Part shown: positions 2,945 to 34,301 of the stretch, piece after piece
Layout of the letters: every line of letters begins with the position of its first letter
How positions within the stretch are numbered: position 1 is the stretch's first letter
From: a phage
Direction: 5' to 3' (one strand)
Length of the DNA stretch: 64,000 bases
Sequence record: PZ179882.1
Position numbers and translations under genes: made by a program
Notes under the pieces: model-generated
The model's database searches: none
What the model was told of the DNA's origin: nothing
The model's input: only the letters and a program-made list of their open reading frames with translations

Positions 2945-3138
2945 ACTAATTCCTTTAATCCATAGATAGGAGATAATTCATCACCCATACGAAGGTCTTC
3001 ATTTCCATCTACCCAGGAAACAATATAAGCCTCTTTTATTTGAACGTCTCTCCATTTAAATGCAGGCAAAACCTTAGAAATTAATCCAGGTATACCGACT
3101 CCCTTTAATTCAACAGTTTGACCCAAAAAGAATTTCAT
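2941..3138 (-). CDS. hypothetical protein, 65 aa
   Basis: Track ORF; 4-nt overlap with neighbours. Confidence 0.5.
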   Translation of the reverse strand: MKFFLGQTVELKGVGIPGLISKVLPAFKWRDVQIKEAYIVSWVDGNEDLRMGDELSPIYGLKELV

Positions 3139-3476
3139 TAGAACCTCATCTGAAATCCGTGCGATTTAACATTACCACCACCAATGTCAGAAATATTAAT
3201 TTCACGCGCAATTGAAGGGTCAATGTCAATTTCACGATTGAGTTTAATGATTGCTAGAGTATCACGTCCACTTACAGTACGGAACTCTAAAGGACATACT
3301 ACATTAACGTAGTTTTTAATCGATTCACTGGTAGGTTGCAAATGAGCAGGAAGGCCTTTAGGCGCCTTTGAGAAAACCACTTCACAGAAATTTTTGCGGG
3401 TATCAAAATAAGTAGTCATAAACATAGTATTTTCCTCAGTAAGGGGCCGAAGCCCCTGTTTTATTTTAAATATCAA
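3138..3476 (-). CDS. hypothetical protein, up to 112 aa (start may be internal Met at 3425)
   Basis: Track ORF; GAGGAAAA Shine-Dalgarno precedes internal ATG at 3425. Confidence 0.5.
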   Translation of the reverse strand: MIFKIKQGLRPLTEENTMFMTTYFDTRKNFCEVVFSKAPKGLPAHLQPTSESIKNYVNVVCPLEFRTVSGRDTLAIIKLNREIDIDPSIAREINISDIGGGNVKSHGFQMRF

Positions 3477-29723: not shown

Positions 29724-32700
29724 ATGGCTACTTTAAAACAAATACAATTTAAAAGAAGCAAAACCGCAGGTCAACTTCCTGCTGCTTCAGTATTAGCCGA
29801 AGGTGAATTGGCTATTAATTTAAAAGATAAAACAATTTTCACAAAAGATGACTCAGGCAATGTTATAGAATTAGGTTTAAAATATGGAGGAACAATTGAT
29901 GGTTCTTTAACTGTTAATGGAAATATAATTGGAAATTTAACAGGTAACGCTGCAACTGCAACGAAATTAAAAACAGCACGAAAAATTAATGGTATATCAT
30001 TTGATGGGTCAAAAGATATCACGCTAACTCCATCTGACATAAATGTCAATAGCACAACGTTTATAAAAAATAACGGCGAATTACCGGTTGATGCTAATTT
30101 AGATGAGTATGGGCCTGTTGAAGAATATCTTGGGGTTTGGTCGAAATCTACTTCAACAAATGCGCAACCGGCAAATAAATTCCCAGAAGAAAATGCCGTA
30201 GGTGTACTAGAAGTATTTGTGGCCGGTCAATTTGCTGGTACTCAGAGATATACTGTAAGATCTGGTAACGTATATGTTCGATCTTTGTCTGCTAAATGGA
30301 ACGGTGTTAACGGTCCGTGGGGAGTTTGGCGTAATGTTCAAGCGTCAACTCGTCCACTTTCACAAACGATTGACCTTGATAGTTTGGGAGAATTAGAACA
30401 TTGCGGCTTATGGCGAAATAGTTCAAGTGCTATTGCATCGTTTGATCGCCATTATCCAGAAGAAGGATCAGCCGCACAAGGATTTTTAGAAATATTTGAA
30501 GGTGGTTTATACGCGAGAACTCAGCGTTATACAACTAGATCTGGTGTTGTTTATACTCGCTGTCTTGCTGCTGCATGGGATGCATCTGCGCCTAAATGGG
30601 GACCGTGGCAACAAGTCGGTAATGTCACACCAGCGACTTTCTATGACGGAAACCTGAATGATTTTAAAACTCCTGGGTTATATAATATTTTAGGCACTGA
30701 TGCCGTTATTAATTGTCCTACAGGCGAAGGTTTACCAGCCGTTATTGTTGGTTTGCTGGAAGTTAAACAGCGTGCTTCTGGTGGTGCTATTTTCCAAAAA
30801 TTTACTACTGCCGGAACGGGAACTACTACCCGTGGTCGTATTTTTGAGCGTGCATATACTGGTGGTGCGTGGGGTACATGGAACGAAGTATATACATCTT
30901 ACTCTCTGCCAATTACTTTGGGTATGGGCGAGCGTGCAATTGAACTTACTTCTATGGATTGGCAACAACAAGAATTTCTTTCTGGTGGGATCTATAGCGT
31001 CGGTGCTAAGGATATGACAAACACGCCAAGTGGGATGACCTTTGCTGATGTTGCTGTTTATATCTCCGTTATTGGTCGTTCTGGTAGTGCTTTAGAATTA
31101 AGCGTAATACCACGCACGTCAAATGATAAAAACTATCATTGTTATAATGTTAGGAGTACTGGTGCTAAAGGATCTCGAACGTTTTATGTAAGGAAGTTTG
31201 CAACCACGTCTACCCAACACACATGGACAGCACAGCAAGATTTTAATGGCGCAGTTAACTTCGGTGCTCCTACCAATTTTAACTCTACTGTTAACCTTAA
31301 TAACACTACCACTTTTAAAACAGAAGTTAAATTTCGCTCATCTAATGCATTCCGTATGTATGGCAGAAAATTTGGTACAATTTTCCGTAATGATGGAGAG
31401 AGTCTTTATATTCTTTCTACCGACGAAGATGACCAAGATGGAAACTTTAATACAAATAGACCTTTCCGTTATGAATTAAGAACTGGCGATGTTACTTTAG
31501 GTGGTGCTAGTGGTGCTAACGTTTTAAAATTAGAACGTAGTTCGCTTGCTGCCACCTTTGGTGGTGATGTTAACTTAAATAAAGGTACACTGACGTTTGA
31601 AGCTGGTCGCTTAAACTCCCGCGATTATTTTAAATTTAACCATTGGGGTGATAGTAATAATGCTCGTGATAACATCATCCAGTTAGAAGATAGTCAAGGC
31701 GCCCATTTTTCCACTGAACGTACTTTAGCGACAGGTGCAATTAAAACTCGTTTCTTTGGCGAAACATTCACTGATGGTACATTATACCTAAATCAGATGA
31801 ATAATAGCTCTGAACGATTCTCTATTAATAATTGGGGAAATTCAGAAGTTGGTCGCGCGGCAGTGATGGAAGTCAGTGATTCCAAAGGTTATCACTTCCA
31901 TACGGAACGCAGGACAGATAACAGTTTGAATTTTGATGTTGCTGGCAATTTTACTGCGCATGGACCTTCCGGAATAACCATCAAAAACTCAACTGGTGCA
32001 CGACATATCTGGTTTAGAGATGATAGCGATGCAGAAAAGGCTGTTATCTGGGCTACAGATGAGGGTATTTTACATATTCGCAATAATCATGGGGGTTCAT
32101 TTAGTCATCACTTCCAGGGTGCAATGATTAAAGCGGGAGAGCGTGTTCCATATAATGGTGAATACGCTCTTATCCGTGGTGATATTTCAGGTGGTGCATG
32201 GGTAGACTGGCGAGAGCGTCCGGCTGGATTGTTGGTAGACTGTCAGGACTCACGAAATCAAGCATATAACATTTGGAAAGCTACTCATTGGGGCGAACAG
32301 CACCTTGCGGCGATGGGTGTTCATGCTGACGGTGGTAATCCTCGTGTTGTATTGCATGTGGGTGGGAATGATTATGCATTTGCATTTAACGGTGATTTTA
32401 CTGCTGGTGCTGCTGTATATTGTAACGACGTTTATATTCGTTCTGACCGTCGTCTGAAAATTAATGTTGAAGACTACGAAGAGAATGCGGTGGATAAGGT
32501 AAATAAACTCAAAGTTAAAACCTATGATAAAGTTAAATCTCTTTCTGACCGCGAAGTTATCGGCCATGAGATTGGTATTATCGCACAGGATTTGCAAGAA
32601 GTATTACCGGAAGCTGTTAGCACTTCTAGTGTCGGATCTCAGGATAACCCAGAAGAAATTTTAACAATTTCAAACTCTGCTGTGAACGCGCTTTTAATTA

Positions 32701-32795
32701 AGGCCATTCAGGAAATGAGCGAAGAAATTAAAGAATTGAAAACGCCTCTCTTTACTAAAATTGCTCGCAAAATTAGTAAATATTTTAAATTCTAA
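29724..32795 (+). CDS. 37: long tail fiber distal subunit gp37, 1023 aa, with C-terminal self-cleaving intramolecular chaperone domain
   Basis: Large fibre protein; C-terminal 117 aa from [13 protein letters not shown]…[16 protein letters not shown] resemble Peptidase_S74 chaperone domain. Confidence 0.93.
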
Positions 32796-32801
32796 CAACA
32801 A

Positions 32802-32819
32802 GGGGGAAATGCCCCCTTT
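32802..32819 (+). other. GGGGG-loop-CCCCC hairpin between genes 37 and 38
   Basis: 5-bp G/C stem with weak U-tract; possible attenuator. Confidence 0.35.
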
Positions 32820-32831
32820 GGAGTATAAATT

Positions 32832-33614
32832 ATGGCAGTAGTTGGAGTTCCTGGCTGGATTGGAAGTTCAGCCGTAAATGAAACGGGCCAGCGCTGGATG
32901 AGTCAAGCGGCTGGTCAATTAAGATTAGGTGTTCCTTGCTGGATGAGTCAATTTGCAGGTCGCTCAAGAGAAATTATTCATACACTTGGAGCAGATCATA
33001 ACTTCAATGGTCAATGGTTCCGAGATAGGTGTTTTGAGGCAGGTAGTACACCTATAGTGTTTAATATCACTGGAGATTTAGTATCATATTCTAAAGATGT
33101 TCCTTTATTCTTCATGTACGGAGATACACCGAATGAATATGTTCAACTGAATATACATGGTGTAACGATGTATGGCCGTGGCGGGAATGGCGGTAGCAAT
33201 AGTCCTGGCTCAGCTGGGGGTCATTGTATTCAAAATGATATTGGTGGGAGACTAAGAATTAATAATGGCGGAGCTATTGCTGGCGGTGGCGGTGGCGGTG
33301 GCGGCGGATATTATTCTCCTTTTTCACAAATGAGATTGACCTTTGGCGGTGGCGGCGGTCGTCCGTTTGGCGCTCCGGGCGGATCTATTGATATGCAATC
33401 AGGAGCAACTGCTGGTACTATTTCTGCGCCTGGCGCAGGGTCTGTGAACGGTATCTACAACGGCGGGTCTGGTGGTGAAGTTGGCTCCGCAGGAGGTAGA
33501 TGTAATATTCGTGGTCAAGGATATGAATACGATGGCGGAGCTGCTGGTTATGCCGTCATAGGGTCTACACCGACATGGCAAAACGTTGGAGCAATATATG
33601 GTCCAAGAGTATAA
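32832..33614 (+). CDS. 38: gp38 receptor-recognising adhesin of the T2 type (glycine-rich motifs), 260 aa
   Basis: Multiple poly-Gly motifs ([24 protein letters not shown]) separating short variable segments; unlike the 183-aa T4 gp38 chaperone. Confidence 0.88.
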
Positions 33615-33644
33615 TGTGAATAAATATCCTTAAAAGGAGGGTCT

Positions 33645-34301
33645 ATGGCAGCACCTAGAATATCATTTTCGCCCTCTGATATTCTGTTTGGTGTTCTAGA
33701 TCGCTTGTTCAAAGATAATGCTACCGGGGAAGTTCTTGCTTCCAGGGTAGCTGTCGTAATTCTTTTGTTTATAATGGCGATTGTTTGGTATAGGGGAGAT
33801 AGTTTCTTTGAGTACTATAAGCAATCAAAGTATGAAACATACAGTGAAATTATTGAAAAGGAAAGAAATGCACGCTTTGAATCTGTCGCCCTGGAACAAC
33901 TCCAGATAGTTCATATATCATCTGAGGCAGACTTTAGTGCGGTGTATTCTTTCCGCCCTAAAAACTTAAACTATTTTGTTGATATTATAGCATATGAAGG
34001 AAAATTACCTTCAACAATAAGTGAAAAAACACTTGGAGGATATCCTGTTGATAAAACTATGGATGAATATGCAGTTCATTTAAATGGACGTCATTATTAT
34101 TCCAACTCAAAATTTGCTTTTTTACCAACTAAAAAGCCTACTCCCGAAATAAACTACATGTACAGTTGTCCATATTTCAATTTGGATAATATCTATGCTG
34201 GAACAATAACCATGTACTGGTATAGAAATGATCATATAAGTAATGACCGCCTTGAATCAATATGTTCTCAGGCGGCCAGAATATTAGGAAGGGCTAAATA
34301 A
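33645..34301 (+). CDS. t: holin t, 218 aa
   Basis: MAAPRISFSPSDILFGVLDRLF…, single TM segment then large periplasmic domain; matches T4 holin. Confidence 0.93.
   Translation: MAAPRISFSPSDILFGVLDRLFKDNATGEVLASRVAVVILLFIMAIVWYRGDSFFEYYKQSKYETYSEIIEKERNARFESVALEQLQIVHISSEADFSAVYSFRPKNLNYFVDIIAYEGKLPSTISEKTLGGYPVDKTMDEYAVHLNGRHYYSNSKFAFLPTKKPTPEINYMYSCPYFNLDNIYAGTITMYWYRNDHISNDRLESICSQAARILGRAK

Follow-up and report, generated by a model that had tools for sequence, protein, structure and literature searches.

A T6/RB3-type gp38 adhesin gene of a Tequatrovirus: a length-conserved polyglycine tract whose GGCGGT periodicity is incidental to codon choice

Structures have been solved for two gp38 adhesins, those of S16 (PDB 6F45; Dunne et al. 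2018) and PP01 (PDB 9V85; PMC12892980), both of which bind OmpC. In S16, three tryptophan prongs plug gp38 into gp37, and the glycine-rich motifs (GRM) form ten polyglycine-II (PGII) helices arranged in a three-layer sandwich, in which helix 3 is an unusually long PGII helix with its main chain hydrogen-bonded to neighbouring helices (PMC6851490). In PP01, distal loop B is required for OmpC recognition and residues 208 and 230 (in the numbering of PP01 itself) cross-link to the receptor (PMC12892980). T6, RB3, RB5, RB6, RB7 and RB14 use Tsx on E. coli, and no viable T6 was recovered when GRM2, GRM3, GRM4 or the hypervariable segments HVS1-3 were deleted (PMC3157838; Trojet et al. 2011). Modular shuffling mediated by the GRMs is attributed in PMC3157838 to Tetart 1998, and the idea that these motifs are recombination hotspots is stated in print both there and in PMC12032242. 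In engineered CM8xEV240 recombinants, exchange within gp38 was confined to the part 'from HVS2 onwards' (bioRxiv 10.64898/2026.04.02.716166).

We analysed a stretch of 64,000 nucleotides of phage DNA (sequence record PZ179882.1), called the window below, which contains gene 38 of a T-even phage (Tequatrovirus), an open reading frame that encodes a gp38 adhesin of the T6/RB3 type. The features of the locus are listed in Table 1. A Pfam scan of the 260-amino-acid product matched GP38 (PF05268) with 240.7 bits over profile positions 1-218 of 218 and Gp38_N (PF21721) with 73.7 bits over positions 1-40 of 40 (E 1.2e-20), the cut-off being 25 for each, and detected no Pfam family beyond these two. 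A sequence search of the PDB returned the PP01 gp38 receptor-binding domain (9v85, E 1.3e-79) and S16 gp38 within the gp37-gp38 tip complex (6f45_D, E 4.8e-50). An AF2 model built from 72 homologues (pLDDT 87.6, pTM 0.80) matched the same two structures when compared with the PDB by Foldseek (9v85_C, E 4.5e-27 and a target-normalised TM of 0.88; 6f45_D, E 4.6e-21), with nothing else in the PDB at E < 1. The beta-helix and PGII sandwich are thus present in the predicted structure of the window protein, which is 67% identical to PP01 gp38 and 43% identical to S16 gp38 and differs from both in its distal loops.

Table 1. Coordinates of gene 38, its subdivisions and its neighbours in the window
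Feature	Position	Strand	Basis
Gene 37, distal long-tail-fibre subunit, 1023 aa, tip capped by gp38	29724..32795	+	ORF, Pfam
Putative autocleavage motif DVYIR^SDRRLKI, gp37 aa 902-913	32427-32462	+	Motif position
Intercistronic hairpin GGGGG-AAATG-CCCCC, between g37 stop and g38 ribosome-binding site	32802..32816	+	Sequence
Shine-Dalgarno GGAG, 8 nt 5' of g38 ATG	32820..32823	+	Sequence
Gene 38, T6/RB3-type receptor-recognizing adhesin, 260 aa, ATG start	32832..33614	+	ORF, Pfam, PDB, fold match
N-terminal attachment domain Gp38_N, aa 1-42, W9/W22/W37	32832..32957	+	PF21721, Trp positions
GP38 domain, aa 47-260, predicted beta-helix and PGII sandwich with hypervariable loops	32970..33611	+	PF05268, AF2, Foldseek
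Nine-glycine tract, aa 151-159, core of GRM2 (Trojet numbering)	33282..33308	+	Codons, alignment
First copy of 15-nt exact direct repeat TGGCGGTGGCGGCGG	33293..33307	+	Sequence
HVS2 / distal loop B, aa 160-171, segment duplicated in ZN18 and PYps47T	33309..33344	+	Alignment
Second copy of 15-nt repeat TGGCGGTGGCGGCGG, 51 nt downstream of first	33344..33358	+	Sequence
Five-glycine tract, aa 172-176, GGGGG then RPFG, GRM3	33345..33359	+	Codons
Holin gene t, regularly found next after g38 in T-even phages	33645..34301	+	Phage_holin_T, E 2e-116

The agreement of Pfam, PDB sequence matches and predicted fold bears out the first-pass annotation, which had recognised a T2/T6-type tip adhesin and not a chaperone of the T4 kind. 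The opposite reading, in which the frame would encode a gp38 of the T4 type, hence an assembly chaperone not found in the virion, draws only on the gene name and on the position downstream of gene 37, both of which T4 gp38 shares with the window protein. We give it practically no chance of being correct, as the T4 protein has 183 amino acids, belongs to an unrelated sequence family and lacks the GRM/HVS architecture of the 260-residue window protein. The adhesin families are the only ones that Pfam finds, sequence and predicted fold both match the solved adhesins, and gp37 of the window, like that of S16 and fPS, has a cleavable S74 chaperone domain at its end (PMC7917993); on these matches the T4-type chaperone was rejected. 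The gene is already known, as is its family, and its exact sequence is public: the identical protein is present in the databases in a cluster of 155 members (P0001). UGKSEcP1 gp38 differs from it by 2 amino acids, RB3/RB5 gp38 by five substitutions (A14S, T73A, N210S, S213G and Y231S), and T6 gp38 is 92% identical. The gp38 proteins of T6, RB3, RB5, RB6, RB7 and RB14 have 260-261 amino acids with the same GRM/HVS layout and gene order as in the window; HVS2 is exactly that of RB3/RB5 and matches T6 at 11 of 12 residues (S165P).

The surroundings of the gene are those of a T-even phage. The gene order is g36-g37(S74)-g38-t-asiA, and about 20 kb around the gene are ~96% identical to several Tequatrovirus genomes. 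In gp37, Pfam matches Gp34_trimer and Peptidase_S74 (E 1.2e-14, aa 907-965), the latter corresponding to the C-terminal intramolecular chaperone. A motif like the putative autocleavage motif of gp37 has been aligned to the autocleavage site of S16 (PMC7917993). The stop codon of g37 is separated from the start of g38 by 36 nt, and the hairpin found there has counterparts in relatives with other stems and loops (e.g. GGGCC-TTCG-GGCCC and GGGGC-TTCG-GCCCC). Two minus-strand open reading frames lie inside or overlap g38 (33399..33581 and 33548..33712), and were set aside as presumed by-products of the glycine-rich coding strand.

The properties of the protein are compatible with a model in which gp38 would cap the tip of gp37 once the C-terminal chaperone domain of gp37 has been cleaved. 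The attachment domain with its three tryptophans is shared with S16, and among 72 gp38 homologues W9 is invariant and W22 nearly so. The C-terminal half would fold into a beta-helix with a PGII sandwich, in which the PGII helices would be supplied by the glycine-rich motifs, and the distal loops that would touch the outer-membrane porin by the hypervariable segments. The protein contains 62 glycines among its 260 residues, with one run of nine, one run of five and ten GG pairs, and several glycine columns are invariant (G115-G120, G129-130, G183, G201 and G218, together with G152-G156 of the nine-glycine tract and G173-G176 of the five-glycine tract, the last two sets being invariant among the 72 homologues), with variable stretches between them. 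Because the window protein is close to the Tsx-using group of T6, RB3 and RB5, its receptor is most likely Tsx, a prediction from sequence that would set it apart from the OmpC-binding S16 and PP01 adhesins. The HVS3-HVS4 stretch holds three of the five substitutions that separate the window protein from RB3/RB5 (N210S, S213G and Y231S), and with residues 208 and 230 of PP01 gp38 cross-linking to its receptor, the receptor specificity could differ from that of RB3/RB5.

The nine-glycine tract can be placed on the S16 structure, since PGII helix 3 of S16 (151-GGGGGGGG-158) aligns to residues 151-159 of the window protein in the 6f45_D alignment, and judged from this alignment the tract is the long PGII helix at the centre of the receptor-binding domain. 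Nearly the same length is kept across the family. Between a conserved I-[A/C] anchor and HVS2 there are nine slots in ~95% of the representatives of 120 clusters, even at identities as low as 53%, and where the run of G is shorter (5-8) among these representatives this is due to substitutions at the first and last slots (S, A, C; I, A, Y) and not to indels. The likeliest cause of this constancy is the structural constraint that a central PGII helix would impose.

At the nucleotide level the tract reads GGC GGT GGC GGT GGC GGT GGC GGC GGA, in which Tandem Repeats Finder detects TGGCGG x4.0 as a perfect array of period 6 at 33281..33304. Open reading frame, codons and repeat search therefore agree with the first-pass description of a 260-residue protein with poly-Gly blocks and a near-perfect GGCGGT repeat. 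The array exceeds chance only weakly. When nine-codon tracts were simulated by drawing glycine codons at the frequencies of gp38 glycine runs (GGC 42%, GGT 50%), a period-6 stretch of at least 23 nt was obtained in 3% of tracts, and in 0.5% under the overall glycine codon usage of the window gene. Among 53 homologous tracts a perfect period-6 stretch most often measures 11 nt; just 3 tracts attain 23 nt, the class of the window tract and the longest one.

The codon usage of the family explains how such a pattern arises. In the gp38 family, GGC and GGT make up 92% of glycine codons in runs of at least four, compared with 70% elsewhere. GGA and GGG represent 10.5% of glycine codons when the next codon is also glycine and 32.6% otherwise (chi2 = 363, a value inflated by sequence kinship), while the share of GGC climbs from 18% to 40% when a glycine codon follows. 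The GGCGGT periodicity is then a by-product of writing a glycine run with essentially two codons. GGA or GGG before glycine may be avoided in that they would create GGAGG, which resembles a Shine-Dalgarno sequence, or homopolymer runs of five or more G. This avoidance is a plausible reason for the scarcity of the two codons in that position, although some tracts begin with GGA-GGT, which counts against it.

The register of the hexamer varies even in close relatives, which have for example GGC GGC GGC GGT GGC GGT..., GGA GGT GGC GGC GGT GGT... or GGC x5 GGT..., and in six T6-like genes the diversity at third positions is 0.30 in the tracts compared with 0.17-0.21 at other fourfold sites. The possibility that the hexamer is a conserved DNA element was rejected on the shifting register, the unconstrained third positions and the 3% chance expectation. 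Because register, third-position diversity and chance figure all lack any sign of conservation at the DNA level, we conclude that the hexamer repeat is incidental and is not maintained.

The repeat had been presented in the first-pass annotation as a plausible site of in-frame expansion or contraction, and of recombination affecting host range. Taken in its strongest form, this would make (GGCGGT)n a selected, hypermutable contingency repeat whose frequent in-frame length changes alter host range by creating adhesin diversity. Clean products of slippage do exist in relatives: in L085, a metagenomic contig, the whole gene agrees at 100% with the widespread allele P0119 apart from (GGTGGTGGC)x4 where that allele has x3, giving 12 glycines (+9 nt), and L084 has one GGTGGC unit fewer than L058, with 6 glycines in place of 8 (-6 nt). 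In addition P0054 has 6 glycines and P0112 has 4 where their relatives have 9, and the window tract, as described above, is among those with the longest perfect period-6 stretch. However, these four variants are all singletons from uncultured assemblies and from non-T-even contexts, none of them in the T6-like group, and the repeat unit is not kept at the DNA level beyond the need of the protein. None of the 58 best-matching phage isolates with listed coordinates showed a change of tract length, and the nine slots are held in ~95% of the representatives. These figures refer to the 58 best of ~400 g38 genes in the phage collection, ~120 cluster representatives and ~70 fetched loci; a search of genome contigs for g38 yielded just three partial N-terminal matches and no usable full-length gene. 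An 823-nt gene range given for P0119 in L102/L103 was considered as a frameshift and dismissed as a coordinate artefact, the reading frame having the normal 261 codons. The scrambling of the register by synonymous changes in close relatives, the 3% chance expectation, the role of the tract as a structural core helix (PMC6851490) and the failure to recover viable T6 without GRM2 (PMC3157838) all argue in the same direction, and we consider a selected contingency repeat very improbable. What stands of the earlier proposal is that slippage and loop rearrangements at glycine repeats do occur in relatives; what finds no support is length variation as a frequent or selected mechanism, the tract being fixed in frame in ~95% of the representatives and, by alignment, the central PGII helix of the fold.

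A different role for the glycine-rich motifs is that of the Tetart 1998 / Trojet 2011 model, in which they would be selected at the DNA level as recombination hotspots that shuffle loops between alleles. In its favour, the alignment of the window gene with BF15-like and M1-like alleles breaks directly after the last glycine codon of the tract. Nucleotide divergence from these alleles is 5-7% over codons 51-150 (4-5% over codons 111-150), 7-15% in the tract, 58-67% in HVS2 from codon 160, 21-44% through codon 240 and 10-15% over codons 241-260. The junctions of loop duplications and deletions fall inside glycine tracts, the exchange in the CM8xEV240 recombinants is consistent with a boundary at this position, and the hotspot idea has, as noted, been put forward in two publications. 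On the other hand, the third positions of the tracts show no extra conservation, and codons for identical residues differ more often inside the tract (a fraction of 0.22-0.44) than in the upstream block (0.12-0.19); there is therefore no conservation at the DNA level beyond the protein constraint. The boundary may moreover be simply the end of ~300 nt of upstream homology. We regard selected hotspots as a doubtful explanation, though less so than the contingency repeat. In the reading that we prefer, the hexamer is a by-product of codon choice and the tract marks the edge of a conserved block at which alleles with different loops join. The first-pass suggestion that recombination occurs here holds to the extent that the tract is a mosaic boundary, and is not supported as a frequent or selected mechanism.

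Rearrangements of the neighbouring loop are seen in two close relatives. The g38 gene of Yersinia phage vB_YepM_ZN18 (ZN18), 97% identical to that of the window at the nucleotide level, carries an exact 51-nt tandem duplication (+17 aa), and the g38 gene of PYps47T, 92% identical and written with other glycine codons, carries a 54-nt duplication (+18 aa) with a hybrid 6-Gly junction. PMC8762354 mentions the PYps47T insertion only as a '15 amino acid' insertion. Both proteins have the HVS2 sequence of the window protein and the same kind of flanking glycine-codon direct repeats, but HVS2 and a glycine tract are doubled, whereas the window gene has the single-copy layout. Each duplication has the length that separates the two copies of the longest shared glycine-codon repeat in its own background: 51 nt in ZN18, which is also the spacing of the 15-nt repeat in the window, and 54 nt in PYps47T, which is the spacing of the 14-nt repeat of that gene. 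Because they differ in length and lie in different glycine-codon repeat backgrounds, the two duplications are independent events. The window pair at 33293 and 33344 would itself yield a 17-aa duplication like that of ZN18.

ZN18 and PYps47T were both isolated on Y. pseudotuberculosis. The Yersinia-infecting relatives PYps14T, PYps15T, PYps32T and fPS-65 have no such duplication. Among the 58 best-matching phage records with listed coordinates, gene length differs from that of the window only in ZN18 and PYps47T (three records). Reciprocal deletions of HVS2 are present in raw assemblies, in L015 and in L017/L018, the latter two coming from two different assemblers. The deletion and tract-length variants from uncultured assemblies could represent defective genomes or sequencing errors.

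The short exact repeats, within the nine-glycine tract and between it and the five-glycine tract, are a side effect of spelling glycine with two codons, and in relatives such microhomologies have at times given rise to slippage, adding or removing a few glycines, and to unequal exchange by which HVS2 is doubled or lost. Experimental precedent for a short in-frame tandem duplication that alters host range in a T-even adhesin comes from T4, where duplications in the tip of gp37 expand host range (Tetart et al. 1996, as cited in PMC3157838). That case concerns gp37 and not gp38, and the gp38 loop duplication is known from sequence comparison. One may go further and suppose that the microhomologies around HVS2 serve to vary the number of loop copies, unequal exchange between the two glycine tracts repeatedly duplicating loop B, with the doubled loop helping T6-type phages to use receptors other than Tsx on Y. 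pseudotuberculosis; this we think unlikely, with somewhat less in its favour than the hotspot model. Host-range mutants of gp38 studied in the Henning laboratory may include duplications.

In conclusion, the account as a whole, in which the gene encodes a T6/RB3-type adhesin, the glycine tract forms a PGII helix, the hexamer is a by-product of codon usage and rearrangements arise occasionally in relatives, appears to us highly probable. For the phage of the window its value lies in the annotation and in the prediction of a receptor, and it otherwise matters little. For the family, it carries the caution that clustering at 90% identity conceals loop-length and slippage variants, and it offers in the spacing of glycine-codon repeats a simple rule for the sites at which gp38 would rearrange spontaneously and in frame, which may be useful to phage engineers.

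The distal loop HVS2 of the gp38 adhesin (aa 160-171 in the window protein) is duplicated together with a Gly tract, in tandem, in two Yersinia phages, vB_YepM_ZN18 and PYps47T, both isolated on Y. pseudotuberculosis. The insertion is 51 nt in ZN18 and 54 nt in PYps47T, a length that in each sequence equals the distance between the copies of its longest shared repeat, and the duplication junctions of both phages lie within Gly-codon repeats. The two duplications are independent events. For PYps47T, the literature merely mentions a '15 aa insertion' (PMC8762354). Smaller length changes occur in the long Gly tract itself: (GGTGGTGGC)x3 of L104 has become x4 in L085, the rest of the gene being 100% identical, and the tract of L084 is shorter than that of L058 by one GGTGGC unit. 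L085 and L084, each represented by one metagenomic contig, are clean in-frame slippage variants.

HVS2 is missing altogether from three gp38 genes (L015, L017 and L018), which encode proteins of 238 and 242 aa in which both Gly tracts are fused. Their sources are raw SRA/ENA assemblies; two different assemblers yielded one of these variants. The gp37 encoded on the L015 contig is unusually short (477 aa). Because Trojet et al. (PMC3157838) found T6 with HVS2 deleted to be non-viable, L015, L017 and L018 may represent minority variants or genomes that are defective.

Full-length homologues of the gp38 adhesin are also found beyond T-even phages, in L102-L104 (e.g. JBIGVW010000002.1, 133 kb) and in L033, L047, L052 and L079-L081, on contigs of about 105-114 kb. 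They sit after a gene for a 1129-aa tail fibre with a Peptidase_S74 end. The Enterobacteriaceae contigs on which they lie resemble prophage or phage-plasmid elements, and genes for ParA/ParB and toxin-antitoxin systems as well as IS genes are present there too. The collection has 126 blocks in which the widespread allele P0119 is listed. A public copy of the window protein (P0001), PJZ22119.1, is labelled 'receptor-recognizing protein [Bacillus cereus]'; it is encoded on a 171.5-kb contig, almost certainly a T-even phage genome that is a contaminant of, or mislabelled within, a bacterial assembly. In L095, a match at 44% identity covers no more of gp38 than its first 145 residues; it lies on a 178-kb contig, a size typical of T4-like phages, attributed to the genome of a marine Bacteroidota, Flagellimonas marina.

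Stable C(UUCG)G hairpins have long been known in T4 intercistronic regions. Between the g37 stop codon and the g38 Shine-Dalgarno sequence, a hairpin is present in all lineages compared, at the same position in the window and in L098, L099, L101, L003, L006 and L013; its stems and loops differ, several versions have a UUCG tetraloop, and the stem changes are compensatory.

Coordinates of gp38-associated features
Feature	Locus	Position	Detail
Protein P0001	window	32832-33611	identical
g37-g38 hairpin	window	32802-32816	GGGGG-AAATG-CCCCC in the window; forms elsewhere GGGCC-TTCG-GGCCC, GGGGC-TTCG-GCCCC, GGGC-TTCG-GCCC
Conserved segment 5' of Gly tract	window	33222-33281	60 nt, 20 residues
Counterpart of duplicated segments	window	33293-33358	
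gp38 with duplication, ZN18	L001	1501-2331	
gp38 with duplication, PYps47T (MT515755)	L014	1501-2337	
Slippage pair	L085	601-1395	
Slippage pair	L104	5001-5786	
No HVS2	L015	1501-2217	
No HVS2	L017	309-1037	
No HVS2	L018	143-871	
N-terminal match	L095 (NZ_JBHSCL010000010.1)	3001-3465	

In the alignment of the window with its homologues (A3), the segment immediately 5' of the Gly tract has only 3 variable positions, among alleles whose downstream loops are unrelated. It lies within codons 51-150, a conserved stretch some 300 nt long, which gives crossovers far more homology than the Gly tract itself.
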